From an uncultured Bacteroides sp. (GTDB lineage Bacteria > Bacteroidota > Bacteroidia > G022818785): DNA of 64,000 nucleotides. Below the pieces are notes generated by a model. The model was not told the DNA's origin. It did not search any database and saw only the letters and a list, made by a program, of their open reading frames with translations. Shown here piece after piece: positions 1,706-58,509 of this stretch. A program made the translations under genes and the position numbers. Where the stretch lies: contig CAZUHH010000008.1 in NCBI GenBank assembly GCA_964620755.1, positions 191,172-255,171 on the forward strand, in the 5' to 3' direction. Position 1 is the first letter of the stretch, and every line of letters begins with the position of its first letter.

Positions 1706-2512
1706 ATGAATATTATATTTAATTCTTCTATAGGAAAGAAAATAATTGTTGCATTAATGGGATTATTCTTATGTTTATTTTTAATAGTGCATTTAATTGG
1801 CAATCTTAAACTATTTATAAATGATTATGGATTTTCTTTTAATAAATATTCTGCATTTATGTCTAGTAATATAATTATTAAAATTTTTAGTTGGTTGTTA
1901 TATTTAAGTATTATTATTCATGTAACTATGAGTATTTATTTACTAATTAAAAGTAAAAAATCTAGATCAAAGAATTATTATTATATTAATAGAAAAAAAA
2001 ATTCTACTTGGATATCTAATAATATGGCTTTATTAGGCACAATAATATTATTTTTTATAATAGTACATATGTCTAATTTTTGGTGGAAATGTAAATTTGG
2101 ATATATACCTTATATAGAATATATAAAAGATGTTAAAAATAATTCAATTGTATCTTTTAGAGAAATTAATGATTTTGATATCATTAAAGATTATAGTTGT
2201 AATGGATTTTATTTTTATAACAATAAAGGTCAAGTAGTTTATATATATAGAAATTTATATAAAATAGTTGTAGAAACATTTAAAATATCGTGGATAGTTT
2301 TCATTTATATAATATCTATGATAGCTATATCTGCACATTTATTACATGGATTTCAAAGTGCTTTTAGAACTTTAGGTATAAATTTTCAGTATTATGGATA
2401 TATAATAAATATAATTGGTATTGCTATATTTTCTGTTTTAGTTCCACTATTATTTGCAATTATTCCTATTTATTTTTTTATTATAAATAATAATTTATTT
2501 TTTTTAACATGA
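1706..2512 (+). CDS. sdhC: Succinate dehydrogenase cytochrome b subunit
   Basis: Hydrophobic multi-TM protein with conserved His residues; stop overlaps sdhA start (ATGA); position upstream of sdhA-sdhB. Confidence 0.75.
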
Positions 2513-4479
2513 TATTAAATCCCAAAATACCCGAAGGAGATCTTCATTTAAAATGGACAAAATATAAGTCAACCGTTAATTTAATAAGTCCTAATAATAA
2601 AAAATTATATAATATAATTATTATTGGTTCAGGATTAGCTGGATCATCTGCAGCTGCTTCATTAGCAGAATTAGGATATAATGTCAAAATTTTTTGTTAT
2701 CAAGATTCTCCCCGTAGGGCTCATTCTGTTGCTGCTCAAGGTGGAATTAATGCTGCTAAGAATTATCAAAATGATGGAGATAGCATTTATAGATTATTTT
2801 ATGATACAATTAAAGGTGGTGATTACAGATCTAGAGAAGCTAATGTGTATAGATTGTCTGAAATAAGTGGTAGTATTATTGATCAATGTGTAGCACAGGG
2901 TATTCCATTTGCTAGAGAATATAATGGTTTATTAAGCAATAGATCATTTGGAGGAGTACAAGTATCCAGAACATTTTATGCTGCAGGTCAAACTGGGCAA
3001 CAATTATTGTTAGGTGCTTATGGATCTTTAATGCGTCAAGTTAATATGGGAAAAGTATTGTTATACAATAGGCATGAAATGATGGATATTGTTGTGAAAA
3101 ATAATATAGCTATTGGCGTCATAGTAAGAAATCTTGTAAATGGAAGTTTAGAGCGACATTTTGGGCATGCTATTATTTTAGCTTCTGGAGGCTATGGTAA
3201 TGTTTTTTATTTGTCAACAAATGCTATGAATAGTAATGTTACTGCAATTTGGCAAGCATATAAAAAAGGAGCTTTATTTGCTAATCCATGTTATGTTCAA
3301 ATACATCCAACATGTATACCTGTTTCAGGTGATTATCAATCAAAATTAACTTTAATGTCTGAATCATTAAGAAATGATGGTCGAATATGGGTACCTAAAT
3401 GTAAAAATGAAATACGAAATCCAAATGATATTAAAGAAATTGAACGTGATTATTATTTAGAAAGACGTTATCCTACTTTTGGTAATTTAGTGCCACGTGA
3501 TGTTGCTTCGAGAGCTGCAAAAGAAAGGTGTGATTTAGGTTATGGTGTTGGTAATTCTAAAATGGGTGTATATCTTGATTTTAAAGATGCTATTTATCGA
3601 TATGGTAAATTGGAATGCGGAATAGATAATTACACTAATGATTTAATATATAAAATAGGAGAAAAAGTTATTGAAAATAAATATGGTAATTTATTTTCTA
3701 TGTATAAACAAATAACAGGTATTAATCCTTATAAACATCCTATGACTATATATCCAGCTATTCATTACACTATGGGGGGATTATGGGTTGATTATGAATT
3801 AATGACTAATATAAAAGGATTATACGCAATTGGAGAATGCAATTTTTCTGATCATGGTGCAAATAGATTGGGAGCTTCGGCTTTAATGCAAGGCTTAGCA
3901 GATGGTTATTTTATTATATCTAATACATTAGGATCTTATTTATCTAAATATTCAAATAATAATACACAATATGAAATAAATCAATCTTTTAATAATGCTG
4001 AAATATTAGTAAAAAATAATATTGATAAATTATTGAATGTTCAAGGATCTAAGCCGGTTGATTATTTTCATAGAAAATTAGGTAAAATAATGTGGAATCA
4101 GTGTGGTATGTCACGCAATGAAGATAAATTAAAAGATGCAATTGATAAAATAAAATTATTAAAAAAAGAATTTTGGAATTGTGTTTTTATTAATGGAAAT
4201 AGCAAATCATTAAACATAGAATTGGAAAAAGGTATTAGATTAGCTAATTTTTTAGAAATGGGAGAATTGATGTGTATAGATGCATTAAATCGTAATGAAT
4301 CATGTGGTAGTCATTTTAGAGAAGAATATCAAACTAAGGATAATGAAGCCATGAGAGATGATAAAAATTATAGCTATATTGCCAATTGGGAATATTTATC
4401 ACATAATAAAACACATAAATTACATAAAGAAAATTTAATATTTTCTAATATATTACCATCAAAAAGAAGTTATAAATGA
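2509..4479 (+). CDS. sdhA: Succinate dehydrogenase flavoprotein subunit
   Basis: FAD-binding [13 protein letters not shown], covalent-FAD His region [18 protein letters not shown]; 656 aa. Confidence 0.95.
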
Positions 4480-4486
4480 TATTATT

Positions 4487-5236
4487 ATGAATAATAAATT
4501 AAAATTAACATTAAAAGTATGGAGACAAGTAAGTTCAAATCATAAAGGTAAGTTTGAAAATTATACATTAAATGATATATCTCCAGATATGTCATTTTTA
4601 GAAATGTTTGATGTTTTAAATGAAAAACTTATCTATGCTAAAAAGGATCCAATTGCATTTGATCATGATTGTAGAGAAGGAATATGTGGATCTTGTTCTA
4701 TGTTTATAAATGGTAGGCCTCATGGTCCTAAAAATAGTATTACGACATGTCAATTACACATGAGATCTTTTAATTACGGTGATACTATAATTGTAGAACC
4801 ATGGAGATCAAATGCATTTCCTATTATAAAAGATTTAATAGTTGATAGATCTTCCTTTGACAGAATAATAACTAAAGGAGGTTATATATCGTTAAACACA
4901 GGTAATGCTGTAGATGCTAATGAAATTATTATTCCTAAATTAAATGCCGATAAATCTTTAGATGCTGCAGCGTGTATTGGATGTGGTGCTTGTGTAGCTG
5001 CTTGTAAAAATGCCTCTGCAATGTTATTTGTTGGCGCTAAAATATATCAATTCTCTCAATTACCACAAGGAATGCCAGAACAATCTAAAAGAGTTAAATC
5101 TATGATCAAGCAAATGGATAAAGAAGGATTCGGTAGTTGCACTAATACAGGTGCTTGTTCTGCTGAATGTCCTAAAAATATATCTTTAGATGTAATTAGT
5201 AGTTTAAATAAAGAATTAATAAAATCTATATTTTAA
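4487..5236 (+). CDS. sdhB: Succinate dehydrogenase iron-sulfur subunit
   Basis: Three Cys clusters [33 protein letters not shown] for 2Fe-2S/4Fe-4S/3Fe-4S centres. Confidence 0.9.
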
Positions 5237-5241
5237 TAAAA

Positions 5242-6519
5242 TTAAATAATAACTTTATGAAAATCATTATTTAGATATTTTTTAGCAATATATTGTATTT
5301 GAATACTATTAACTGATTGTACGTTATCTATATAATTTTGATAGTAATTTATATATGATTTAATATTTAAAAAATTTTTAAACTTGTCAGATATTGAAAA
5401 TATATTATCGAAACTATTTATAAATTCTCCTAACATATATTGTTTAACCATATTTAATTCTTGTAAATTAACTTTATATTCACATATTTTTTTTATTTCA
5501 GTATCTATAATATCTAATGTTGTTTTAAGATAATTGTTATTAATGCAAGTATATATTATAAAAATAGATCGTTGTGAATATGGATATAAATGTGAACTTA
5601 CATTATAGGTATATCCTTTTTCTTCTCTTAAAATGTTCATTAATCTAGAATTATAATATCCTCCTAAAATAGTATTTATAAATTTTAATATAATATAATC
5701 TGAATCATTTTTAGTAATATCTAGGACTTTACCTATATATATAATAGATTGTGTTTTTTTAATTGTATGTATTTTATATGATCCTGTAGGTTCAGGTTGA
5801 ATTTTTTGAAATTTTTTACTAAAATTATAATATGTATTATTAGGCCATACAAAATCAAAACAATTTTTTAACATGTATAAAATATTATAGTTATTTTTAT
5901 GAGATGATAAGATAATTTTACAATTTTGTGTATTAAATGTTCTTTTATAAATGAATCTAATATTTTGAGGATGTATATTAATAATATCATTAATATCAGG
6001 TACATATCCATATAATGTATTTTTACCAAAAATAATTTTTTTAAATGCATTATTAGCTAAAACTTCATTATTCTTTGAGTTGTATATTAAATTTTGAATA
6101 GTATTAGTTTTATATGTTTCTATCTCATTATGTGAAAATATTGATTCTAATAAAATGGATTTTATAACAGGTAATATATTACCTATAAATTTATTCATTA
6201 CATAAATAGTAATATTAATGTATTCAACACAACTATATACATCGTAAGTAGTTCCATAATAATTTAATAATTCATGTAATGTAAATGAATTATATTTATT
6301 GGTGCCCGATAATATTAAATCATTAAAAGTTAGGTAATTAATAAAGTTTTTATCTAAAAAATGATTATGTGAAAATGTAAAATCTATTCTTGTTATTGTA
6401 TATTGCCCAGTAAAAAAACAAAATAATTCAATATTATTAGATAATTTGTATTTAATTGGAAAATTTAAATTTATATTTTTTATTTTATGGATAAACGGAT
6501 GTTTTAATTTCTTAATCAT
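5242..6519 (-). CDS. Peptidase M16 family protein, probably non-catalytic partner subunit (no HxxEH motif)
   Basis: Length and tandem position with the upstream M16 peptidase; lacks the inverted zinc-binding motif. Confidence 0.55.
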   Translation of the reverse strand: MIKKLKHPFIHKIKNINLNFPIKYKLSNNIELFCFFTGQYTITRIDFTFSHNHFLDKNFINYLTFNDLILSGTNKYNSFTLHELLNYYGTTYDVYSCVEYINITIYVMNKFIGNILPVIKSILLESIFSHNEIETYKTNTIQNLIYNSKNNEVLANNAFKKIIFGKNTLYGYVPDINDIINIHPQNIRFIYKRTFNTQNCKIILSSHKNNYNILYMLKNCFDFVWPNNTYYNFSKKFQKIQPEPTGSYKIHTIKKTQSIIYIGKVLDITKNDSDYIILKFINTILGGYYNSRLMNILREEKGYTYNVSSHLYPYSQRSIFIIYTCINNNYLKTTLDIIDTEIKKICEYKVNLQELNMVKQYMLGEFINSFDNIFSISDKFKNFLNIKSYINYYQNYIDNVQSVNSIQIQYIAKKYLNNDFHKVII

Positions 6520-12988: not shown

Positions 12989-14497
12989 ATGGTTAAAAAG
13001 TTACAATTAGTTAAAGGTTTTTATAACAATATAATTATTAATGACTTTAATAATGAAATTATATATTTAAAATATTCTCTTAATTTTTTTATTAAATTAA
13101 GCAATAATAAAAAATTGTTAATATTATTAAATACTGATTTATCTATAAATAATATTGAATATTTTAAATATATAATTTATCCTTTAATATCTACTAAAAT
13201 TATTAATAAGATATTTATTGTAAATAATAATTTAATCAAATCTTTCATTTGTAAAGAAAATATTTTTTTTTGCAATACAGTGTCACAGGTATGTGATATG
13301 ACAAAAATTAATTACGATAACAATAATGATATTTTATTGAAAGGTAATGATAAAAATATGATTAAAACTACTAATCATTTTTTTTGTATCAATAATAGCA
13401 ATACAATACTAAATATTAATTTAAATATTATAGAAAATAATTTACAAGTTTATAGAGATATTCTTAATAAGAAAACTAAAATTATGGCTATTGTAAAAGC
13501 ATATTCTTATGGATTTGGAGATATAATAGTCAATATATTACAATATTGCAACATTGATTATATAAGTGTTGCAAATACTTATGAAGGAGTTATTTTAAGA
13601 AAAAATGGCATTATATCCCCCATAATGATTATGAATTTTGATATTAATACATTTGACAGTCTTTTATATTATAATCTAGAACCTTCTATCTATAACTTTA
13701 AAACTTTAAAATTGTTAATATCATTCTTATTAAAAAAGAATATACATGATTTTAAAATACATATTAAATTTAATACTGGTATGAATAGATTAGGATTCGA
13801 TTATAAAGATATTATATTATTAGCAAATATTTTAAATAAATATTCAAATTTAATTATTATAAAATCAATATTTTCACATTTATCATCTAGTAAAAATATA
13901 TCATTTAAAATAATTACACAAAATCAAATTAAATTATTCAGTATAATAAAAAATAAAATGAAATTATACATAAAGTATAATATTTTATTTCATATTGCAA
14001 ATACTACAGCAATTATTAATTACCCCAATGCTCAATTTGATATGGTAAGATTAGGTATAGGATTATATGGTATAGATTATACAAAAAAATTAGATAAAAT
14101 TAAATTTTCAGCTTCTTTACAAACTATTATATCTCAAATTAGATATGTAAAAAAAAATCAAACAATTGGTTATAATTGCAAAGGTACTATAAAAAGAAAT
14201 TCTAAAATAGCTATTGTAAAAATAGGCTATGCAGATGGTTTAAAAACATATTATAATAATAATATAAATTATATGATAGTTAACAATATGAAAGCACCTG
14301 TAATAGGTAATATATGTATGGATATGACTATGTTGGATGTAACAAATATTAAATGTAAAGAACATGATATAGTAACAATATTTGATAATATTGATACACT
14401 TAATTATATAGCAAATATTTTAAATATTAGTCTTTATGAAATATTTACAAATATTTCATCAAGAGTAAATAGAATATATCATTATAGTTATAAATAA
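12989..14497 (+). CDS. alr: Alanine racemase with about 135-aa uncharacterised N-terminal extension
   Basis: PLP-lysine motif IMAIVKAYSYGFG at about aa 166-178 and C-terminal GNICMDMTMLDV; ORF is 502 aa versus about 365 aa for the catalytic domain. Confidence 0.8.
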   Translation: MVKKLQLVKGFYNNIIINDFNNEIIYLKYSLNFFIKLSNNKKLLILLNTDLSINNIEYFKYIIYPLISTKIINKIFIVNNNLIKSFICKENIFFCNTVSQVCDMTKINYDNNNDILLKGNDKNMIKTTNHFFCINNSNTILNINLNIIENNLQVYRDILNKKTKIMAIVKAYSYGFGDIIVNILQYCNIDYISVANTYEGVILRKNGIISPIMIMNFDINTFDSLLYYNLEPSIYNFKTLKLLISFLLKKNIHDFKIHIKFNTGMNRLGFDYKDIILLANILNKYSNLIIIKSIFSHLSSSKNISFKIITQNQIKLFSIIKNKMKLYIKYNILFHIANTTAIINYPNAQFDMVRLGIGLYGIDYTKKLDKIKFSASLQTIISQIRYVKKNQTIGYNCKGTIKRNSKIAIVKIGYADGLKTYYNNNINYMIVNNMKAPVIGNICMDMTMLDVTNIKCKEHDIVTIFDNIDTLNYIANILNISLYEIFTNISSRVNRIYHYSYK

Positions 14498-17336: not shown

Positions 17337-17480
17337 AATTATATTTTATTTTTAACGTAAAAAACAATTTTAATATTTTAAAATGAAATTATATTTTTGG
17401 ATTAAAAAATATTATATTTTATATATAAAACATATATAATTATATTGTTTTTTAAGTTAAATGTTAATACAATATTTAAA

Positions 17481-17915
17481 ATGTATATACAAATAATAAA
17501 TGGACCTAATCTTGGCATTTTAGGTAGAAGAGAAACTGATATATACGGTAATATTTCATTTGAAGAATTTTACAAAGATTTACAAAAACAATACAAAAAT
17601 ATAACAATATATTATTATCAAAATAATTCAGAAGGATTTATTATTGATAAATTATATAAAATAAATCCATCATGTAATGGCATTATTATAAATGCAGGAG
17701 CTTTAACACATACATCTATTGCATTATCAGATGCTATTAAGGCAATTAATATACCAGTAATAGAAGTACATATTTCAAATATTTACAAAAGAGAATTATA
17801 TCGACATAAATCATATATTGCTCCTAATTGTATTGGAAGTATAATTGGATTTGGTTTATATTCTTATAAAATGGGTATTGATTGGTTGATTAATAATTGT
17901 AGTTCTGTAAATTGA
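17481..17915 (+). CDS. aroQ: 3-dehydroquinate dehydratase, type II
   Basis: IQIINGPNLGILGRRE, INAGALTHTSIAL, IEVHISNI; start moved to in-frame ATG at 17481 (track start 17445 is TTG). Confidence 0.85.
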   Translation: MYIQIINGPNLGILGRRETDIYGNISFEEFYKDLQKQYKNITIYYYQNNSEGFIIDKLYKINPSCNGIIINAGALTHTSIALSDAIKAINIPVIEVHISNIYKRELYRHKSYIAPNCIGSIIGFGLYSYKMGIDWLINNCSSVN

Positions 17916-17921
17916 TATTTT

Positions 17922-19916
17922 ATGGGTAATAACAATAATCCTAAGTTAAAAATTTATAAACTATATAATAATATTCAACAGTATAGTTATAATTATTATG
18001 TTTTAGGGGAGTCAACTATTACAGATTATGAATTTGATAATATGATAAATGAATTATATGCATTAGAAACTAAATATCCTCAATATAAAATTGAAAATTC
18101 CCCAACAGATAAGATTTATAATAATGAAAAAAATATTGCGGTTAAACATATAAATCCTATGTTATCACTTTCTAATACGTATTCTGAAAAAGATTTATTA
18201 TTATTTGATCGTAGTATTAGAAAAAAAATTAGTTGGAAATATCAATATGTTTGTGAATTAAAATTAGATGGTATAGCATTATCAATTAGATATGTTAATG
18301 GTAAATTTTATCAAGCTATTACTAGAGGCAATGGATTATATGGAGAGGATATAACATATAATATTAAATATATGGCTGATATTCCTATGAAAATAGATAA
18401 TGTAAGTAATTTTGTAGAAATAAGAGGAGAAATTATTATTTTAAAGAGTGATTTTAATAAAATAAATGAGTATAGAAAAAATAAATCTTTATTACCTTTT
18501 TCTCATGGTAGAAGTTTTATAATAGGTGTAATTAAATTACAGCACTATAATCCTTTATATAAAAAAATATTAAAATACTATGCTTATGATATATATGTTG
18601 ACAATATAAAATTAAATAATCATTTTAATAATATATATATATTAAAAAGCTATAATTTAACTGTTTCAAATGATATAGAGATATGCAATAATATTAATAA
18701 AGTTATAAAATTTATTGCTAAATATAAAGATATAATTAATAAATTAAATTTTCATGTAGATGGTATAGTTATAAAAATTAATCAATATAAAATACAACAA
18801 TATCTAGGTAATACTTCTAAATATCCTAAATGGGCTATAGCATATAAATATCCTCCTAATGAAGTTGAAAGTATTGTTTTAAAGATTGTATATCAGGTTG
18901 GACGTACAGGTTTGATAACTCCAATAGCTAAAATAAAACCTATTAATATTTCAGATACTATTGTTAAAAGTATCAATTTACATAATTATTATGAAATATT
19001 AAGATTAGATATTAGAATCAATGATACTGTTTATATAAAAAAAAGCGGTGAAATAATACCTAAAATTACTGGTGTTAATTTAAATAAACGTTTATCTAAT
19101 GCTATAAAATTTATTTTTTCTATTAATTGTCCATCATGTAATAGTAAATTAATAATATCTAACAATAACAAATCACATTATTGTATTAATACAATATGTG
19201 ATAGTAAGATAATAAATAAAATTGTTCATTTTATTTCTAAAAATGCTATGAATATTGATAATCTTGGCATTAAAAATATTGAATTATTATATAAAAATAA
19301 GATAATTAACAACTATACTGATTTATATTCTTTAAAAAATAAAAAAAATTTAATAATGGCTATTAAGGGATTTAATCATACTATTATTAATAAAATATTA
19401 TACAGTATTGATAAATCTAGAAAACCTAAATTTCAAAATTTTTTGTTTGCACTTGGAATACCTTCTATAGGTATTGAAACATCTATTTTAATATCTAAAG
19501 AATTTAATAATATAAATGAATTAATAAATTATAATTTTAATAAATTACCTAAAATTATGAATATAGGACCTAAAATAGTTCATAATTTACATTTATTTTT
19601 CTCAGATAGGGAAAACAAGATATTGTTAAATAAATTATTAGTAGAAAATATAGAAATACAATATTATAAATCAATTAATAAAAGTAAAAAATTAAATAAT
19701 ATTCATTTTATTATTACTGGAACTTTTAAAAATTATAGTCGTAATGAATTAATAGATTTAATTCATATTAATGGAGGTATAATATGTAAAAATATGTCAT
19801 CTAAATTAAATTATGTTATTGCTGGTAATAATATGGGGCCATCAAAAAAATTAATGGCAGAAAAAATGAATATTAAGATAATATCTGTTAATGAACTATT
19901 AAAAATAATCAATTAA
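17922..19916 (+). CDS. ligA: NAD-dependent DNA ligase
   Basis: Adenylation lysine motif CELKLDG, zinc-finger cysteines (CPSCNSKL), 664 aa. Confidence 0.9.
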   Translation: MGNNNNPKLKIYKLYNNIQQYSYNYYVLGESTITDYEFDNMINELYALETKYPQYKIENSPTDKIYNNEKNIAVKHINPMLSLSNTYSEKDLLLFDRSIRKKISWKYQYVCELKLDGIALSIRYVNGKFYQAITRGNGLYGEDITYNIKYMADIPMKIDNVSNFVEIRGEIIILKSDFNKINEYRKNKSLLPFSHGRSFIIGVIKLQHYNPLYKKILKYYAYDIYVDNIKLNNHFNNIYILKSYNLTVSNDIEICNNINKVIKFIAKYKDIINKLNFHVDGIVIKINQYKIQQYLGNTSKYPKWAIAYKYPPNEVESIVLKIVYQVGRTGLITPIAKIKPINISDTIVKSINLHNYYEILRLDIRINDTVYIKKSGEIIPKITGVNLNKRLSNAIKFIFSINCPSCNSKLIISNNNKSHYCINTICDSKIINKIVHFISKNAMNIDNLGIKNIELLYKNKIINNYTDLYSLKNKKNLIMAIKGFNHTIINKILYSIDKSRKPKFQNFLFALGIPSIGIETSILISKEFNNINELINYNFNKLPKIMNIGPKIVHNLHLFFSDRENKILLNKLLVENIEIQYYKSINKSKKLNNIHFIITGTFKNYSRNELIDLIHINGGIICKNMSSKLNYVIAGNNMGPSKKLMAEKMNIKIISVNELLKIIN

Positions 19917-19919
19917 ATT

Positions 19920-20474
19920 ATGGGTATAATACATAATTTAAGAAATAAAATAGGATATATGCTACTAAATAGTACAATTAACAATTGTAAATATAAACAT
20001 TATTCTATTCCTTTTAAAAATGCAAACAATATAGGTGTTTTATATAATGTCAATAATAGTATTGATTTGTTAGAAATGAATTTATTAATAGAACTATTAT
20101 GTAAGTATAACAAAAACATTTATTTACTATATTATTCTAATAATAAGCAAAAATATATTAAAAATTATAATTATGAGTTTTTATATGTAAATTATTTTAA
20201 TAAAAAAAATATTAATTACATTTTTCATCCTAAATGTAATGTTGTACAATCATTTATTAAAACAGAATTTGATATATTAATTGCTATTTGTTTTTATGCT
20301 TTTTTGCCAATAGATTACATATCAGGATTATCAAAAGCTAAATTTAGAATAGGTTTATATAACAAAATTAATATTAATTATCTTGATTTAATATTTGATT
20401 TAAAAAATGATGATAATATAAATTCTTTTATAATTAATTTAAAAAGATATTTTAATTTAAAAGAAAAAATATGA
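19920..20474 (+). CDS. Hypothetical protein, 184 aa, no recognisable motif
   Basis: ATG 4 bp after ligA stop; stop overlaps dapA start (ATGA), which suggests co-transcription; composition N/I/K/Y-rich. Confidence 0.5.
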   Translation: MGIIHNLRNKIGYMLLNSTINNCKYKHYSIPFKNANNIGVLYNVNNSIDLLEMNLLIELLCKYNKNIYLLYYSNNKQKYIKNYNYEFLYVNYFNKKNINYIFHPKCNVVQSFIKTEFDILIAICFYAFLPIDYISGLSKAKFRIGLYNKININYLDLIFDLKNDDNINSFIINLKRYFNLKEKI

Positions 20475-21352
20475 ATAACTTAATAAGTGGTACTGGTATA
20501 GCAATTATTACACCATTTAAAGAAAATTATAGTATAGATTATATAAGTTTTAGAAAAATCATTGAACATATCTGTAATAGCAACGTAAATTTCATAATAG
20601 TTGCAGGTACTACAGGTGAATCATCTCTTATAAGTGATTATGAAAGATGTAAAATTTTTGATTTTATAGCAAATATTAATAACAACAGACTAAAATTAAT
20701 AGCTTGTATTGGAGGTAATAATACTAAATCAGTTATTAAAATGATTAAAAATTTCCATTTATCAAAATACTATAAAGCTATATTATCAATTAGCCCATAT
20801 TATAACAAACCATCTCAAGATGGTATAATAATACATTATAAAAAAATAGCTGAAGTTTCTAAACTTCCTATCATAATATATAATATTCCTCATAGAACAA
20901 GTATTAATATATTGGTAGAAACAATTATTAAATTATCTGAAATTCCCAATATTATTGGCATTAAGGAATCTAATAGTAATGTAATAAATACATATAATAT
21001 TATTAACAAAACTAATTCAAATTTTTTATTTTTTTCGGGCGATGAAACTTTATCATTATCTGATATGGCATTAGGAGCCAATGGAATAATATCTGTTATA
21101 GGTAATGCATATCCTAATTTAGTATCTGATATGATAAACAAGTGTTTAAAAAACAATTTTATAGATGCGAAAAAAATATATAATAAACTTATGAAGATAA
21201 CATCTTTAATATTTCAAGAAGGTAATCCCTCAGGAATAAAAGAACTAATGTATCATTTAAATTTTTGTACTAATATAGTGAGATTACCTTTAACAAAAGT
21301 CAGCTATGATTTATCAAATAAAATTAAAAAAACAATCAAAAATGATTTTTAA
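20471..21352 (+). CDS. dapA: 4-hydroxy-tetrahydrodipicolinate synthase
   Basis: GTGIAIITPF and IVAGTTGES motifs of the DapA/NAL family; 293 aa. Confidence 0.88.
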   Translation: MNNLISGTGIAIITPFKENYSIDYISFRKIIEHICNSNVNFIIVAGTTGESSLISDYERCKIFDFIANINNNRLKLIACIGGNNTKSVIKMIKNFHLSKYYKAILSISPYYNKPSQDGIIIHYKKIAEVSKLPIIIYNIPHRTSINILVETIIKLSEIPNIIGIKESNSNVINTYNIINKTNSNFLFFSGDETLSLSDMALGANGIISVIGNAYPNLVSDMINKCLKNNFIDAKKIYNKLMKITSLIFQEGNPSGIKELMYHLNFCTNIVRLPLTKVSYDLSNKIKKTIKNDF

Positions 21353-21522
21353 TTGTTTTTTATATTTTGTACTTCTAATCTTATATCTTGAGCTATATTT
21401 TTAAGCATTTGCATGCCTTTTCTTAATCTAGTTCCAGCTGCACCATTACCTTTTTGATAAAATTTTTCAGCATCTTTTTCTAATGAAGTTAATACTTCTT
21501 TAAAATATTCGAATTTTTTCAT
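21349..21522 (-). CDS. Histone H1-like (Hc1-type) nucleoid protein, 57 aa
   Basis: Manual minus-strand translation MKKFEYFKEVLTSLEKDAEKFYQKGNGAAGTRLRKGMQMLKNIAQDIRLEVQNIKNN; GNxAAGTR.RK motif of Bacteroidota histone H1-like proteins; absent from ORF track (below length cut-off). Confidence 0.7.
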   Translation of the reverse strand: MKKFEYFKEVLTSLEKDAEKFYQKGNGAAGTRLRKGMQMLKNIAQDIRLEVQNIKNN

Positions 21523-21659
21523 TTCACATTAAAATAAAATAATCAAAACCCATAGAATAATTATGGATTAATTAAAAATAGATATAAAATATATCATTTA
21601 TTTCTTATATTATAAATATTTTTTTTTGAAAAAAAAATATTTTATATAAAAATATATAC

Positions 21660-22065
21660 ATTAATTGAATTTGTCGCTTTAAAAATAATATTTTAAAGAG
21701 GAAAGTCCGGACAACATAGAGCAATTTGCTTCTTAACGAGAAGGTATTATTAATAATAACAGATAGTGTCACAGAAAATAACCGCCTTTAAAATAAGGTA
21801 AGGGTGAAAATGTAAAGGTAAGAATTTACAATATTATATAGTGATATATAATATGGATAAACCTCAAATGTTGAAAGATTAAATAGTTTCATATTCATTT
21901 TTATCATGAATACAAGTAGCTCAGCTTGTTTTATTATTCATCAAACATTGATAGATAATAAAGTGAAATAGGTGAATCGATTGATTAATTAAGTAATTAA
22001 TTAACTAGATAAATGACAAATATATTCTTTTGAATATACAGAATCCGGCTTATTATATTATATGT
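21660..22065 (+). ncRNA. rnpB: RNase P RNA (bacterial type A); ends approximate (+/- 20 nt)
   Basis: Conserved blocks in order: GGAAAGTCCGGAC (21700..), ACAGAAAATAACCGCC, AATAAGGTAAGGGTGAAAATGTAAAGGTAAGAA, AGCTCAGCTTG, ACAGAATCCGGCTTAT (22038..22053). Confidence 0.78.
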
Positions 22066-23009
22066 ATATAATTTTTATATAAATCTATAATTTTAGATGC
22101 TAAAACATTGCCTATTTTTTTATATGACTCTGCAGTTAATCCAGCAATATGAGAACTTAAAATAATTTTATCAGATTTAATTAATTGTTTATAAAAATTA
22201 CTGTTGTATAATTCTGGAAATTTTTCTATTTCTAATACATCTAAAGCTGCACCAATAATAATACCATTTTTAATAGCTTTTATTAAATCACTTGTTTTGA
22301 CAATATTGCCTCTAGAAGTATTAATAAAATAAATCTTCTTTTTAAAAGAATTAAAATAATCAATATCAATCATATGCTTTGTTTCTGTATTTAAAGGAAT
22401 ATTAATACTAACAATATCTGATTGTTCAAATAAATCTTTTTCAGTTACTAATTTAACACTTTTATATTTTGTAGAAATTTTATATTTATCATATGCAATT
22501 ATATTCATATTAAAAGATGACATTTTATTTGCTAATGAAGATCCATTATGTCCTAAACCGACAATACCTAATGTTTTATTTTCCAATTCTATAGATTGAT
22601 TACTTATTCTATCCCATATACCATTTTTAATTTCATTATTTGACTTAACAATATTCTTTGTTAAACTTAATATCATACCTATTATATGTTCTGCAACTGC
22701 ATTTTTATTTCCTTCTGGTGCATTTATAATTTTAATATTATATTTCATTGCAGTATTTATATCAATATGATCTAATCCTGATCCAGCTCTGGCAATGAAT
22801 TTTAAATTATTACTTTTGGTAATTATTTTATCATCTATTATAAATGAATTACTTCTTAATACTAGACCATCATAATTATCAATTATTTTTAGAATGTTAT
22901 TATAAGATATATTTTTTTTAATATCTGTTTTAATATTAAAATTATTAATTTTTTTTATAAAAATAGAATGTATATCATTAATAATTAATATTTTATTTAA
23001 TATTTTCAT
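22053..23009 (-). CDS. serA: D-isomer-specific 2-hydroxyacid dehydrogenase, probably D-3-phosphoglycerate dehydrogenase (short form)
   Basis: NAD-binding LGIVGLGHNGSS, catalytic-domain blocks NTSRGNIV and SSHIAGLT; start placed at ATG 23009 (track start 23024 is TTG). Confidence 0.65.
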   Translation of the reverse strand: MKILNKILIINDIHSIFIKKINNFNIKTDIKKNISYNNILKIIDNYDGLVLRSNSFIIDDKIITKSNNLKFIARAGSGLDHIDINTAMKYNIKIINAPEGNKNAVAEHIIGMILSLTKNIVKSNNEIKNGIWDRISNQSIELENKTLGIVGLGHNGSSLANKMSSFNMNIIAYDKYKISTKYKSVKLVTEKDLFEQSDIVSINIPLNTETKHMIDIDYFNSFKKKIYFINTSRGNIVKTSDLIKAIKNGIIIGAALDVLEIEKFPELYNSNFYKQLIKSDKIILSSHIAGLTAESYKKIGNVLASKIIDLYKNYIHII

Positions 23010-23039
23010 ATTATAAATATTCAATTTTTTATAAAAATA

Positions 23040-28066: not shown

Positions 28067-29077
28067 TTGGAACTAAATATCACTGAAATAAAAAAATTAT
28101 TAAACAAGTTATACATAAATATTATAATAATTACTCATCATAACCCTGATGGCGATGCAATAGGATCATCTTTAGGCCTTTATAATTATTTGATAAAAAA
28201 AAAATATAAAAGAATTAATATTTTATTAACATCTAATTATAGAAATTGTTTTGAATATCTTTTTAATATAGAAAAAATATTATTAGTAAACAATAAATAT
28301 AACATTATTCATAATTTAATTATTAATGCTGATGTAATATTTTTTTTAGATTTTAACAATATTAATAGAATAAAAATAATTAATGAATTAATTATAAAAT
28401 CAAAAGCTGTAAAAATAATTATTGATCATCATACTAATATTAAAATTAAATATGATTTTGCATTTTATGATAATAAAGCATCATCTACATGTGAATTAGT
28501 TTACAAATTAATCAATTATATGAATGATTATCAATTAATAGATAACAATATTGCAACTTGTTTATATACTGGAATATTGACTGATACGAATTCATTTAGG
28601 TTTGTAAATGAAAAATCAGATGTTTTTGCTATTGCTGCTAATTTGATAAAATTAGGGGCTAATAATAAGTTAATATATAATCATATATATTGTTCATATT
28701 CTGATAATATAATTAAATTTTTAGGATATTGCTTGTATAAAAAGTTAAACATTTTTAATAATAAAATATCTATTATGTCTATTTCACTTTTTGAAAGCAT
28801 TCAGTATAGTATTTCTATGAAAGACATATCTTGGATTGTAAATTATCCTCTCTATATTAAAAAAATTCAATTATCTGTATTATTATATGAATTTACAAAA
28901 TGTGATGATATAGTTAAAATATCAATTAGATCTAAAGGTAATATTCATTGTGATGCAATTGCAGCAAAATATTTTAATGGCGGTGGACATCAAAATGCTG
29001 CTGGAGGTATTATATATAATAATATAAATGAATCAGTTAAATATTGTCAAAAAATATTTAATAATATTATATTTTAA
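28067..29077 (+). CDS. nrnA: DHH-family phosphoesterase (NrnA-like oligoribonuclease/pAp phosphatase)
   Basis: DHH motif HHNPDGDAIGS, DHHA1 GGGH near C-terminus; apparent TTG start. Confidence 0.75.
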   Translation: MELNITEIKKLLNKLYINIIIITHHNPDGDAIGSSLGLYNYLIKKKYKRINILLTSNYRNCFEYLFNIEKILLVNNKYNIIHNLIINADVIFFLDFNNINRIKIINELIIKSKAVKIIIDHHTNIKIKYDFAFYDNKASSTCELVYKLINYMNDYQLIDNNIATCLYTGILTDTNSFRFVNEKSDVFAIAANLIKLGANNKLIYNHIYCSYSDNIIKFLGYCLYKKLNIFNNKISIMSISLFESIQYSISMKDISWIVNYPLYIKKIQLSVLLYEFTKCDDIVKISIRSKGNIHCDAIAAKYFNGGGHQNAAGGIIYNNINESVKYCQKIFNNIIF

Positions 29078-38875: not shown

Positions 38876-40006
38876 ATGAATATTGGAATGATAGGTTATC
38901 CTACATATGGTGGTAGTGGAATAATTGCAAGTGAATTAAGTAATCATTTGGCATTAAAAAATCATACAATACATTTTTTTAGCTATTGTCAACCTGTTAG
39001 ATTAAATATGTATTCTAATAATATTTTTTTTCATAAAATAATTACATTAAAAGAATCAATATTGAAATATAAATTATATGAATCAGAATTAATTAGTACC
39101 GTCATTGATATATATTATAAATATTCATTAGATATATTACATATTCATTATGCAATACCACATGCTTATGTGGGATGTATGATAAAAGATATTTTATTGG
39201 CTAATAAAATTAAATTATTGCTAATAACAACTTTACATGGAACTGATATAACATTAATTCAAAAAAGAAAAATATATATTCCGTTAATAGAATATGCTAT
39301 TAATCACTCAGATGGTCTAACTACAGTTTCCAATTCGTTAAAAGAAGATACATTAAAGTATTTTAATGTAAAAAATAATATTATTACAATACCTAACTTT
39401 ATAGATATTAAAAGATTTAGATATTATGATAATAATATTTTAAAAAATATGATAGCACCTAACAATGAATTTATTATTATCCATGTTTCTAATTTTAGAA
39501 AAGTAAAAAATGCAAAAGATGTTATAATCATATTTTTTAAAATATTACAATGTAAAAATATATGTGCCAAATTAGTATTAATTGGAGAAGGCCCTGAAAT
39601 GAATAATGTTAAAGCTATATGTGAAAAATATAATATAACGGAATATGTATACTTTTTAGGATACCAAAGTATTATTGAAGATTTTTATAATATAAGTGAT
39701 ATATTGTTACTTCCATCGTATTTAGAATCGTTTAGTTTAGTCGCATTAGAGGCTATGTCTTGTGGTGTTCCCGTAATATCATCTAATGCGGGAGGATTAT
39801 CAGAAATTAATATTAATGGCAAAACTGGATTTGTTTCTCCTATTGGGGATATTGAATCTATGTCTAAAAATGCTATATACTTATTGAAAAATATTAATAT
39901 ATTAAAATTATTTAAAAAAAATGCGTGTCATTATGCTAGAAATTTTGATAAAAATAATATTGTTGAATTATATGAAAAATATTATTATAGCTTAATAAAA
40001 AAGTAA
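38876..40006 (+). CDS. bshA: N-acetyl-alpha-D-glucosaminyl L-malate synthase (bacillithiol glycosyltransferase, GT4)
   Basis: N-terminus MNIGMIGYPTYGGSGIIASEL, HYAIPHA, TTLHGTDIT and HVSNFRKVKN align closely with BshA. Confidence 0.78.
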   Translation: MNIGMIGYPTYGGSGIIASELSNHLALKNHTIHFFSYCQPVRLNMYSNNIFFHKIITLKESILKYKLYESELISTVIDIYYKYSLDILHIHYAIPHAYVGCMIKDILLANKIKLLLITTLHGTDITLIQKRKIYIPLIEYAINHSDGLTTVSNSLKEDTLKYFNVKNNIITIPNFIDIKRFRYYDNNILKNMIAPNNEFIIIHVSNFRKVKNAKDVIIIFFKILQCKNICAKLVLIGEGPEMNNVKAICEKYNITEYVYFLGYQSIIEDFYNISDILLLPSYLESFSLVALEAMSCGVPVISSNAGGLSEININGKTGFVSPIGDIESMSKNAIYLLKNINILKLFKKNACHYARNFDKNNIVELYEKYYYSLIKK

Positions 40007-50004: not shown

Positions 50005-50751
50005 TTATTCTTTGTCTAAATAAATATTTATTGGAGTGCCAAATAATACTTTATCATTTATGGGCTTAAATGATGATTTTTGTTTATATATAATTGCATT
50101 ATTTTTATCATTTACTTTTTTAGTATAAGTAATTAATCCTATAGTTAAATTTTTATCTATTATTATTTTAATAGCTTCTGCTAAAGTTAATCCCTTTAAA
50201 TTAGGAATTTCTACTGTATTATTTCCTAAACCATTGCCAAAATATAAATCTATAGTGTTTTTTATATAAATAGGTTTGTTAAAATTAATAATACTATTTT
50301 CGTGTTTTGCATATAGTAATATATCTTTTTGATTGGATTGTATATATACAATTTTCCTTATATTAATATTATATTGAGATAATATGTTAATAACATCTCT
50401 TTTTGTCATATTGCATAATTCGGGTATTATAACATATAATGGTTTAGGAGCAGTTACATTGACATATATTTGTCTTTTATTTTTAATATCACTATATGGT
50501 AATGGATATTGATTAATAATAATGTTTTCAGGTTTATTATCAACAAATGTATATCCTATTTTTAATTTTATATTGTCTTTTATTGATTTATCAACATTAA
50601 ATATATTAATTCCGATTAAATTAGGTGTCTTTATAAAATTATTATATCTAGTATAATAATATAAAAATGACGAAATTTGCATGTATGTAATTAAAAATAA
50701 AAAAATAATTGCTATTGTATATTTTATAATATTGAAAATATATTTAATCAT
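50005..50751 (-). CDS. PASTA domain-containing membrane protein
   Basis: N-terminal TM helix followed by repeated PASTA-like modules (e.g. IEIPNLKGLTLAEAIKIIIDKNLTIG); divergent from ddl. Confidence 0.65.
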   Translation of the reverse strand: MIKYIFNIIKYTIAIIFLFLITYMQISSFLYYYTRYNNFIKTPNLIGINIFNVDKSIKDNIKLKIGYTFVDNKPENIIINQYPLPYSDIKNKRQIYVNVTAPKPLYVIIPELCNMTKRDVINILSQYNINIRKIVYIQSNQKDILLYAKHENSIINFNKPIYIKNTIDLYFGNGLGNNTVEIPNLKGLTLAEAIKIIIDKNLTIGLITYTKKVNDKNNAIIYKQKSSFKPINDKVLFGTPINIYLDKE

Positions 50752-50819: not shown

Positions 50820-51824
50820 ATGAAATATAAAATAGCTCTTGTTGTAGGAGGTTATACTAAAGAATATAATATATCTATTCAAGATATAGATTATATAATA
50901 TCTAATTTTGATAAAAATTTATATGAAGTTTATGTAATTTTTATTGAAAAAAATTATTGGTATTATATTAATAGGTTAGATAATACAAAAATTATAGTTA
51001 ATAAAAATGATTTTTCATTAAATATTAATAATATTATTATCAAATTTGATTTGGCATTTATAAATATGCATGGATCACCAGGAGAAGATGGAAAATTAAA
51101 AGGTTATTTTGATATGATTAATATACCTTATACGAGTTCTAATTATATTACATCTGCAATTTGTATGAATAAAAGAATATCAAAACTTTTAATAAAAAAA
51201 TCTACAATATTAAATATTAATGTACCTAAATTTATTTATGTCAATAATTTAAATAGAATGATAAATATAGATTATATTAGTAATTATATTAAATTTCCAT
51301 TTTTTGTTAAAGCTAATAATTTAGGTTCTAGTATTGGAGTATTTAAGGTATATAATCTTAATCAATATATATTGTCATTGAATGCTATTTTTCAAGAAGA
51401 TAATGAAATGATAATAGAAGAATATATAAAAGGTAAAGAATTTAGTATAAGTGTTTTTAAATATAAAAATGATGTAATTGTATTGCCTATTACAGAAATT
51501 ATTCATAATAGTGATTTTTTTGATTATGAAGCAAAATATAATGATTTTTCAAATAAAAACATTATTTTATCAAATATTAATGGACATAATTTTAATAATA
51601 TTATTAAAGTATCTAAAGATATATATAATTTCTTTAATTGTAGTGGTATTATACGTTTGGACTTTATTAAGGAAATAGCTACTAATAAATGGTTTTTTTT
51701 AGAAATTAATATAATACCTGCTATAAATAGAAATAGCATTTCATCAATACATATTAGAAATAGCACATATAGTATGCAAGATTTTTATAATATTTTAATA
51801 AATGAAGCATTAAATAAAATATGA
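50820..51824 (+). CDS. ddl: D-alanine--D-alanine ligase
   Basis: N-terminal IALVVGGYTKEYNISI and ATP-grasp blocks (FFVKANNLGSSIGV, IIRLDFI); 334 aa. Confidence 0.85.
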   Translation: MKYKIALVVGGYTKEYNISIQDIDYIISNFDKNLYEVYVIFIEKNYWYYINRLDNTKIIVNKNDFSLNINNIIIKFDLAFINMHGSPGEDGKLKGYFDMINIPYTSSNYITSAICMNKRISKLLIKKSTILNINVPKFIYVNNLNRMINIDYISNYIKFPFFVKANNLGSSIGVFKVYNLNQYILSLNAIFQEDNEMIIEEYIKGKEFSISVFKYKNDVIVLPITEIIHNSDFFDYEAKYNDFSNKNIILSNINGHNFNNIIKVSKDIYNFFNCSGIIRLDFIKEIATNKWFFLEINIIPAINRNSISSIHIRNSTYSMQDFYNILINEALNKI

Positions 51825-55645: not shown

Positions 55646-56140
55646 TTGAAATTTAAAACATTTTTTTTGATTTTATTAATAATTATTTTTTTGGATCAAA
55701 TAAGTAAACATTTTTTTAGGTGGTATGTTATTGAAAATAGTGAAATTAATTTATTAAATAATCACCTAATAATATGTTTCATTGAAAATGATGGTATGGC
55801 TTTTGGATTAAAATTACCATTTAACAATCAAAAAATTATATTACTTATTATAAGAATAGTTATAATAATTAGTATAATGATAAATATTATACTATATAAT
55901 TATAACAAAGAAGTTATATATGGTTTTCTATTTATTATATCTGGAGGTATAAGCAATATAATAGATGTTGTTTTTAATGGTATAATATATAATTATGCTC
56001 CTATTATGAAAGGCAATGTTACAGATATAATTTATTTTCCTTTTATAGAAAATATTTGCGTATTAAATACAGTTTTTAATATTGCAGATATTTTTATTTT
56101 CATTGGTGTAATAATAGTTTTTATATATTTTAAATATTAA
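55646..56140 (+). CDS. lspA: Lipoprotein signal peptidase (signal peptidase II)
   Basis: LDQISKHF N-terminus, [19 protein letters not shown]; apparent TTG start 1 nt after preceding stop. Confidence 0.8.
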
Positions 56141-57246: not shown

Positions 57247-58509
57247 TTAGTTATGGAATTTGATACCAAATCCTAATTTATTCATATCATTCCAAAATGT
57301 AGGATATGATTTTTCTATAACATTACTATTTTTTATTGTTATTGAACCATATAAAATAGATACAGCTGCAAATGATAAAGCCATTCTATGATCATTATAA
57401 GTTTCAATTAATAAATCATTTTTATTAATGAATCTATTATTAGTTATCAATTGCCAATTATTATTTTCTTCATTAAATTCAACATTTATTTTACTGAGTT
57501 CTCTTTTTAATGCTAATATTCTATTTGTTTCTTTAATTTTTAAACTTTGTAATCCTGTTAATGTTAAATTATGTTTTATGCATGAAAAATATACAATTAA
57601 ACCCTGAACTATGTCTGGATATTGAGTACAATCAATATAAGAAGTATTATCACTTATATAATTATTAACACTAGTTTTTATATATGCTCCACCATTATTA
57701 AATTGGGTAACAATACCAAATTTATTCATTATATTTTTGATATAACTATCACCTTGTCTACTGGTTGATTTCAATTTATCAATAAATAAAGAATTAGATT
57801 TAAATTTATTTACTAATCCTAAAATGAAATACCAATATGATGCACTACTCCAATCAGATTCTATATCAATATTTTTAGATTTATAACTTTGATTTTGTAT
57901 AATAATAATATTATCATTCCATAAATATTTTATACCAAAGTGTTGCATAATATCAAGAGTCATTTTAATATATGGTTTTGATATTATTTTACCATTTATA
58001 TTAATTTTTAATCCCTTAGGTAAAATAGGAGCTATCATTAAAATAGATGATATATATTGACTACTTATATCGCCATTAATTTGTATTTCATTGCTATTAT
58101 TTAATATTTTACCATTTATTAATAATGGAGGATATCCCTTTTTATTTAAATAATGTATATCAGCTCCTAAATTAATTAATGCATCTACTAATAATTTGAT
58201 AGGCCTTTCATGCATTCTTTGATCACCTTTAAGTATCCATTTACCAGCAGTAATTGCACAATATGAAGTTAAAAATCTCATTGCGGTTCCACAAGATTCT
58301 ATATCTATTTCATATTCTTTATTTAGATTAATATTTTTTAATGATCTTGTTAAAATTTTTGTATCATTAGAAAATGATATATTATTTATATTAAACTTTT
58401 TAGAACATAAATTTTGGATAATAAGAGTTCTATTACTTTCACTTTTAGATCCAGGTAAACTAATAGCACCATTTAATTGATTATTATTATATTGTATTGT
58501 TACGTTCAT
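57247..58509 (-). CDS. aroA: 3-phosphoshikimate 1-carboxyvinyltransferase (EPSP synthase)
   Basis: LPGSKSESNRTLI N-terminal motif, 420 aa, adjacent to aroC. Confidence 0.88.
   Translation of the reverse strand: MNVTIQYNNNQLNGAISLPGSKSESNRTLIIQNLCSKKFNINNISFSNDTKILTRSLKNINLNKEYEIDIESCGTAMRFLTSYCAITAGKWILKGDQRMHERPIKLLVDALINLGADIHYLNKKGYPPLLINGKILNNSNEIQINGDISSQYISSILMIAPILPKGLKININGKIISKPYIKMTLDIMQHFGIKYLWNDNIIIIQNQSYKSKNIDIESDWSSASYWYFILGLVNKFKSNSLFIDKLKSTSRQGDSYIKNIMNKFGIVTQFNNGGAYIKTSVNNYISDNTSYIDCTQYPDIVQGLIVYFSCIKHNLTLTGLQSLKIKETNRILALKRELSKINVEFNEENNNWQLITNNRFINKNDLLIETYNDHRMALSFAAVSILYGSITIKNSNVIEKSYPTFWNDMNKLGFGIKFHN

Follow-up and report, generated by a model that had tools for sequence, protein, structure and literature searches.

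An open reading frame between ligA and dapA in a reduced Bacteroidota genome as a divergent member of the DUF6913 family

The closest described system to the gene reported here is the Pfam family DUF6913 (PF21857), whose members are single-domain proteins of about 180 amino acids. Also among the closest known systems are the GT9 enzymes, which include WaaC and WaaF, the ADP-heptose:lipopolysaccharide heptosyltransferases, and a Veillonella structure (3tov); PnsB1 (7wff_a), a GT9-like non-enzymatic structural subunit of the chloroplast NDH complex; and the N-terminal domain of the DHH phosphoesterases (NrnA-like 4py9 and 3w5w; RecJ-like). We compared with these systems an open reading frame (ORF) of 184 amino acids plus a TGA stop codon, located at 19920..20474 on the plus strand of a 64,000-nucleotide stretch of DNA (the window) from an uncultured Bacteroides sp. 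(GenBank assembly GCA_964620755.1, contig CAZUHH010000008.1, positions 191,172 to 255,171). The ORF lies between ligA and dapA and is almost certainly a divergent, AT-biased member of DUF6913. It resembles the other members in its length and single domain, its full-length match to the family Hidden Markov Model (HMM), its near-invariant residues and its position relative to ligA and dapA, which is that of free-living members. It differs from them in being more divergent (80 bits, whereas other members reach E values of approximately 4e-41), in being only 20-34% identical to free-living homologues, and in its composition, which is strongly biased toward Asn, Lys, Ile and Tyr.

The original prediction had described the ORF as uncharacterised and proposed a sensitive profile search, and such a search yielded the family. 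The window protein matched DUF6913 with an E value of 1.8e-22 and 80.4 bits against a gathering threshold of 27 bits, and protein residues 9-179 aligned with profile positions 2-164 of 166, which is essentially the full length of the model. The window protein retains all of the near-invariant residues A35, G39, P104, F112, D118, S138, A140, G145, D156 and Y177. These columns are 85-100% conserved in a diverse alignment of 65 sequences, and P104, F112, G145, D156 and Y177 are invariant in an alignment of 88 sequences. All 88 aligned members matched DUF6913 only, with no other family found convincingly. A search of NCBIfam with the window protein gave no match, and searches of Protein Data Bank (PDB) sequences, whether the query was the protein or the family profile, returned only chance-level hits (E values of at least 0.5). 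The label uncharacterised thus holds for DUF6913 as a family, but the ORF is not unclassified, being a full-length member of which an identical protein is already present at NCBI on a 294,096-bp contig. Public databases already contain both the gene and its family, and nothing about them is new in kind; for the annotation of this genome, a real gene encoding a "DUF6913 domain-containing protein" is the practical designation. No homology to a well-characterised family, which the original prediction had named as grounds for refutation, was found.

The extent of the family depended on the search used. A word-indexed homology search with the single protein as query recovered only the protein itself and one relative, while HMMER, run exhaustively against 1.84 billion representatives (clustered at 50% identity), found 1,367 members at E≤1e-3, of which 474 reached E≤1e-10. 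Nearly all of these are 150-220 amino acids long, apart from a few shorter fragments, and each has one matched stretch, which takes in the full length of the protein. Profile searches added approximately 300 further members, all of them PF21857 and all named either "hypothetical" or "DUF6913 domain-containing", except for one with a JGI label. Longer members of about 215 amino acids (P0043, P0067, P0103, P0124, P0138 and P0145) have about 35 extra residues, rich in Lys and Glu, inserted after the last strand and before the C-terminal helix, and no additional domain was found when these longer proteins were examined for domain fusions. Every taxon named for the DUF6913 proteins belongs to the Bacteroidota. 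The further suggestion that the gene is a candidate for a symbiosis-relevant function is contradicted by these 1,367 representatives, whose named sources are free-living or environmental Bacteroidota. A search with a symbiont-weighted profile found no homologue from a named insect symbiont (e.g. Blattabacterium, Karelsulcia). A paper on PGN_0298, an essential Porphyromonas gingivalis gene of unknown function, proved to be unrelated, as it concerns an isoprenyl transferase.

The ORF is a genuine protein-coding gene and not a chance product. Each of the other five frames is interrupted by 11-38 stop codons over the same interval, no stop-free frame arose in 20,000 mononucleotide shuffles of the ORF, no rival ORF of at least 50 amino acids overlaps it in another frame, and there is no Rfam match over 19920..20474. 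These results, with the full-length Pfam match, bear out the earlier claim of a real gene. The alignment of family members begins at residue 1, which supports the ATG at 19920 as the start codon; the TGA stop occupies 20472-20474. The G+C content of the ORF is 15.3%, the lowest of its neighborhood, in a window of 20.8% G+C.

The gene is the third in a run of four genes on the plus strand, aroQ-ligA-DUF6913-dapA, with junctions of 6 nt, 3 nt and a 4-nt overlap. The run starts with aroQ, which encodes a type II dehydroquinase (17445..17915; Pfam DHquinase_II, E value 1.4e-50), and continues with ligA, encoding a 664-amino-acid NAD-dependent DNA ligase (17922..19916, TAA at 19914-19916), which is intact in the window. 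The ORF had been predicted to begin 4 bp after the ligA stop, and its ATG does start at the fourth base after the TAA, leaving a three-base spacer (ATT, 19917..19919). Its stop codon overlaps the start of dapA in an ATGA (20471..20474, with the dapA ATG at 20471-20473), just as predicted. Downstream dapA, encoding 4-hydroxy-tetrahydrodipicolinate synthase (DHDPS), extends over 20471..21352. The identities of ligA and dapA were established by tblastn to the DNA_ligase_aden/OB/HHH/BRCT genes and the DHDPS genes, respectively, of a close relative and of a free-living flavobacterium (L001 and L002; see below). A convergent Hc1 histone-like gene on the minus strand (21349..21522; Pfam Hc1, E value 5.3e-23) overlaps the dapA stop by 4 nt and ends the cluster. 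The DUF6913 gene is probably co-transcribed and translationally coupled with its neighbors. A promoter and terminator scan gave 54 matches where 61 were expected, and is uninformative in DNA this rich in A+T.

The nearest relative of the window protein, at 58% identity, is encoded in CP063811.1 (L001), a genome of 489,825 bp whose deposited name is "MAG: Bacteroides sp." (MAG, metagenome-assembled genome). Its locus reads aroQ-ligA-DUF6913-dapA-Hc1, with Hc1 on the minus strand and identical flanking genes on both sides, and its DUF6913 orthologue is intact and collinear. In tblastn comparisons of the two genomes, protein identity was 58% for DUF6913, 52-54% for LigA, 55% for HolB, 58% for ClpX, 61% for DapA and 66% for ClpP. 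The nonsynonymous divergence (dN) of the DUF6913 gene is 0.28, and that of both dapA and clpX is 0.29. The ratio of nonsynonymous to synonymous divergence (dN/dS), a check that had been proposed together with that of conservation, is 0.55 and thus below 1; the synonymous term is compressed and unreliable, third positions being 92% A+T, and we gave the ratio little weight. The gene is selectively maintained under constraint, and the prediction that it is a retained gene stood. The reading of the ORF as a decaying spacer is rejected in view of the intact, 58%-identical orthologue whose dN matches those of dapA and clpX. In a separate observation, ligA of this relative is called as two ORFs, of 173 amino acids (3982-4503) and 506 amino acids (4497-6017), and the window LigA also aligns to it in two pieces by tblastn; the split is a frameshift that represents either incipient pseudogenisation or an assembly error.

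In order to place the gene in a wider genomic context, we collected 80 loci, each from a different GTDB species, by scanning contigs with a profile built from the 88-sequence alignment, locating ligA and dapA by tblastn and clustering the neighboring ORFs. A contig scan with a two-sequence alignment had found nothing, and the loci were recovered with the larger one. All 80 loci contain an intact DUF6913 ORF (median 189 amino acids). The same-strand neighbor at the -1 position is ligA in 47 of 80, and at +1 it is dapA in 38 and a GlmU-like NTP_transf_4/hexapeptide gene in 35. Both ligA at -1 and dapA at +1 are found in 12 loci, and three (L032, L074 and L078) had neither gene in the tblastn table. 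The median gap from ligA to DUF6913 is 10 nt, with 17 of 51 junctions overlapping, and the median gap from DUF6913 to dapA is -17 nt, with 33 of 43 junctions overlapping (start codons in these loci being approximate). With regard to taxonomy, 79 of the 80 loci are from Bacteroidota and one is from a MAG labelled Woesearchaeota. This last locus (L057; BPGB01000009.1, "Candidatus Woesearchaeota archaeon KatS3mg002") carries a bacteroidotal ligA-DUF6913-dapA cluster and is most likely a MAG binning or labelling error.

A neighbor-joining tree of the DUF6913 proteins revealed that the classes of context are clade-specific: 33 loci have ligA-DUF-GlmU-like, 27 have DUF-dapA and 12 have ligA-DUF-dapA. 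The window protein and its relative fall among Flavobacteriales loci with the entire ligA-DUF-dapA order. In the 27-locus clade, mostly labelled Bacteroidales, DUF6913-dapA is retained and ligA is not adjacent. The complete order is also present in the free-living L002, L087 and L088, flavobacteria with genes of the type IX secretion system type, and L088 has both overlapping junctions and the convergent Hc1 gene. The comparison shows that the gene and its tight placement between ligA and dapA were inherited from free-living flavobacterial ancestors, and that its coupling to these two genes predates the symbiosis. The original prediction had tied the tight packing of the gene to a compact genome. 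Free-living flavobacteria show the identical order with overlapping stop and start codons, and the packing is therefore not a product of genome compaction. The arrangement is old, has been broken only a few times, and shows long-standing co-expression; as a pointer to a specific functional partner it is weak. In L004 (6773-7957) and 34 other loci, which form one large clade, the +1 gene encodes a 394-amino-acid GlmU-like protein with NTP_transf_4 and hexapeptide repeats and is often followed by lon. Genes for SIS and PGM/PMM proteins lie downstream in L087.

Structures were predicted for two family members. The AlphaFold2 model of the window protein, made with the 88-sequence alignment, had a pLDDT of 85.9 and a pTM of 0.86, and an independent model of the free-living homologue P0167 had a pLDDT of 90.1 and a pTM of 0.88. 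In both, a long helix at the N terminus precedes a single alpha/beta domain of six strands and five helices. In the window protein the basic N-terminal helix comprises residues 2-22 (19923..19985 on the plus strand; pLDDT 84-91) and the Rossmann-like alpha/beta core comprises codons 37-178 (20028..20453, plus strand), while the N-terminal helix of P0167 spans residues 2-20. GT9 enzymes were the best structural matches for both models, with scores of 11.8 and 10.4 for WaaC and 10.5 and 9.5 for WaaF; those for PnsB1 were 11.1 and 9.5. The models thus suggest a Rossmann-like fold most similar to one half of a GT-B enzyme of the GT9 type. Among 65 members, the median pI is 9.3, the net charge of the N-terminal helix is +5 in the median and its hydrophobic moment is low (0.12), and the median of the highest 19-residue hydropathy is far under transmembrane values. 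We infer that the DUF6913 protein is small, basic and cytoplasmic and that its N-terminal helix is strongly cationic. Two Asp, one Ser, one Tyr and one Pro are among the conserved residues, in which no cofactor or catalytic motif could be recognised, in agreement with what had been noted from the single sequence.

Judging from the models, DUF6913 resembles the single Rossmann-like half of a GT-B enzyme such as those of GT9, but it has one domain, without a donor-binding domain and without the conserved catalytic Asp loop. Membership of GT9 was rejected, since the sequence similarity of that family and the two-domain GT-B architecture with its cleft are both absent. PnsB1, at 341 residues, is about twice the length of DUF6913, belongs to another lineage and another complex, and has no sequence relationship to DUF6913. 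The DHH phosphoesterases were also rejected: none of the 88 members has a DHH or DHHA1 Pfam match, the alignments contain no conserved His-containing motif that would correspond to the metal-binding DHH motif, and the NrnA-type protein of this genome is encoded elsewhere (28067..29077).

Taking these data as a whole, we favor as the best overall explanation, and consider it rather probable, that the gene encodes a conserved, inherited housekeeping protein of the DUF6913 family, a binding module with a leaning toward envelope precursors. The gene has been retained in genomes of 294 kb and 490 kb and has diverged to the same degree as ligA, holB, dapA and clpX, and therefore its role points to general housekeeping and not to anything specific to symbiosis; the phylum-wide distribution of the family together with its survival in both reduced genomes argues for the same conclusion. 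With only one GT-B domain and no conserved catalytic constellation, the protein would not be a glycosyltransferase by itself. That DUF6913 is a non-catalytic binding module and not an autonomous enzyme is, judging from the models, an evenly balanced proposition. Such a module would most likely bind a phosphorylated or nucleotide-type ligand, or dock onto a partner enzyme or an anionic surface. It could act in cell-envelope precursor metabolism, i.e. in peptidoglycan or glycoconjugate supply, an assignment toward which we lean weakly and tentatively for three reasons. The best structural neighbors are glycoconjugate enzymes. Both of the alternative +1 genes, dapA (meso-diaminopimelate) and the GlmU-like gene, feed murein or glycan precursor pools, to which L087 adds its SIS and PGM/PMM genes. 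Finally, the reduced genome keeps the alanine racemase gene alr (12989-14497, plus strand), ddl (50820-51824, plus), a second EPSP_synthase-family gene that is probably murA (57247-58509, minus), a gene for a stand-alone PASTA-domain protein (50005-50751, minus), lgt (893-1687, plus), lspA (55646-56140, plus) and a GT4 glycosyltransferase gene (38876-40006, plus). Envelope functions have thus been kept despite a genome of approximately 294 kb.

Several observations weigh against this explanation. The literature searched contained no paper that mentions DUF6913 or PF21857, and none on CP063811, and no experiment addresses the family. The GT9 resemblance, as judged from the models, is one of fold only. 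Foldseek searches of the PDB, the structure search that had been proposed for this ORF, returned nothing at E≤1e-3, the best TM-score being 0.59 (3tov). None of the 88 members has a Pfam Glyco_transf_9 match at E≤10. With hhalign, the DUF6913 profile gave a probability of 0.1% against full-length WaaC (the WaaC sequence being identical to PDB 2gt1), 0.4% against a three-sequence alignment of the GT9 C-domain, and 1.35% against a three-sequence alignment of the GT9 N-domain, where the E value of 0.038 is from a one-profile comparison and is not significant. The gene-order evidence is phylogenetically shallow, as the clade-specific classes can be explained by a few rearrangements, and the adjacency to dapA or to the GlmU-like gene may simply reflect history. 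A nucleic-acid role would account just as well for the basic charge and for the 4-nt overlap with ligA that is often seen. The dN/dS of 0.55 is the highest among nine neighboring genes, the others ranging from 0.17 to 0.42. In addition, both symbiont proteins carry other residues at two positions that are commonly acidic in free-living members (D43 to N, D122 to A or S), a substitution pattern that could mean relaxed function.

In the main alternative, DUF6913 would be a nucleic-acid factor associated with LigA, a small basic protein produced approximately 1:1 with LigA that binds DNA or LigA in replication or repair, or that handles NAD or nicotinamide mononucleotide (NMN). We regard it as unlikely, even though the overlap with ligA and the basic charge mentioned above would both be expected of it. 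The 27-locus clade keeps DUF6913-dapA without an adjacent ligA, and the proteins have neither a glycine-rich nor any other dinucleotide-binding motif. In other bacteria, LigA is not known to need an accessory protein. We saw no fusion of DUF6913 to a ligase or DNA-binding module; all that the longer variants add is their charged insertion. Small-genome symbionts of scale insects have been reported without ligA (bioRxiv 10.1101/2025.10.31.685726).

A second alternative would make DUF6913 the N-terminal half of a split GT-B enzyme, the acceptor-binding or membrane-associating half, paired with a separate donor-binding half as Alg14 is with Alg13. GT9 enzymes are the top structural matches in two independent models, the cationic N-terminal helix could contact a membrane, and the sole collinear profile alignment, over 128 columns, is the one to the GT9 N-terminal domain (DUF6913 37-175 against WaaC 2-153), in which FDILIDL is placed over YDAVIDAQ. 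That alignment is the one that lacked significance, however, and nothing conserved in DUF6913 corresponds to the catalytic Asp/Gly-Asp loop located after strand 1 in GT9. Among the 80 loci no C-domain-type partner gene recurs within three genes of DUF6913, and neither the window nor the 88 fetched loci yielded a GT9 gene. We consider this arrangement improbable, less likely than a LigA factor.

Slightly less credible still is a missing or auxiliary step of diaminopimelate and lysine synthesis co-translated with DapA, which would serve lysine supply in a nutrient-provisioning symbiont. The frequent dapA neighbor, with its mostly overlapping junctions, would be explained, and the genome has retained both dapA and dapB and contains many genes for amino-acid synthesis (ilvBNCD, aroA, aroC and aroQ); yet the +1 gene is GlmU-like instead of dapA in 35 of 80 loci, searches of Pfam, NCBIfam and PDB sequences revealed no similarity to families of diaminopimelate-pathway enzymes, and no cofactor-binding motif is present. 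The weakest alternative, a non-functional remnant, either a chance survivor or an ORF in decay within a reduced genome, could draw on the low G+C content, the top-ranking dN/dS and the replaced residues, but has a negligible chance of being correct given a stop-free frame, a full-length Pfam match with every near-invariant residue kept, and an intact collinear orthologue in a relative that shows equal divergence in its housekeeping genes.

We also considered, and think unlikely, a bolder form of the partner idea, in which DUF6913 would be an essential, Bacteroidota-specific half-GT-B-like module and the obligatory partner in a core process, either as the acceptor- or membrane-binding subunit of a split glycosyltransferase or envelope precursor-supply complex or as a dedicated LigA cofactor. 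If true, it would explain both the survival of the gene down to 294 kb and an operon position held across the phylum. The importance of the finding is modest: DUF6913 is a well-conserved and probably important uncharacterised protein found throughout a phylum, which has persisted through extreme genome reduction and evolves at the rate of housekeeping genes. The ligA-DUF6913-dapA cluster to which it belongs has been kept across the Bacteroidota. The locus tells us nothing specific about symbiosis. It does add to the family an argument from retention under reduction, and its conservation makes it reasonable to consider DUF6913 a candidate for a function that is genetically essential and specific to the Bacteroidota.

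Several other features of the window were observed in the course of this work. The alanine racemase ORF encodes 502 amino acids, and its Ala_racemase domains begin only at residue 143. The first 142 residues have no Pfam match even at E≤1, and the form in the 490-kb relative is equally long (505 amino acids); this N-terminal part may be what is left of a fused domain, MurF for example, or it may be a novel extension. A second protein of unknown function is encoded by a 268-amino-acid ORF (1706-2512, plus strand) that overlaps by 4 nt the gene for the succinate dehydrogenase flavoprotein (2509-4479), which is followed by that for the iron-sulfur subunit (4487-5236). This ORF has no Pfam match and may encode a highly divergent cytochrome b membrane subunit. 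Downstream of the Hc1 gene, an RNase P RNA (Rfam RF00010, 161 bits; 21658-22069, plus strand) overlaps by 17 nt the 5' end of a serA-like 2-hydroxyacid dehydrogenase ORF (22053-23024, minus strand), which is listed from a TTG codon and whose true start is probably further downstream.
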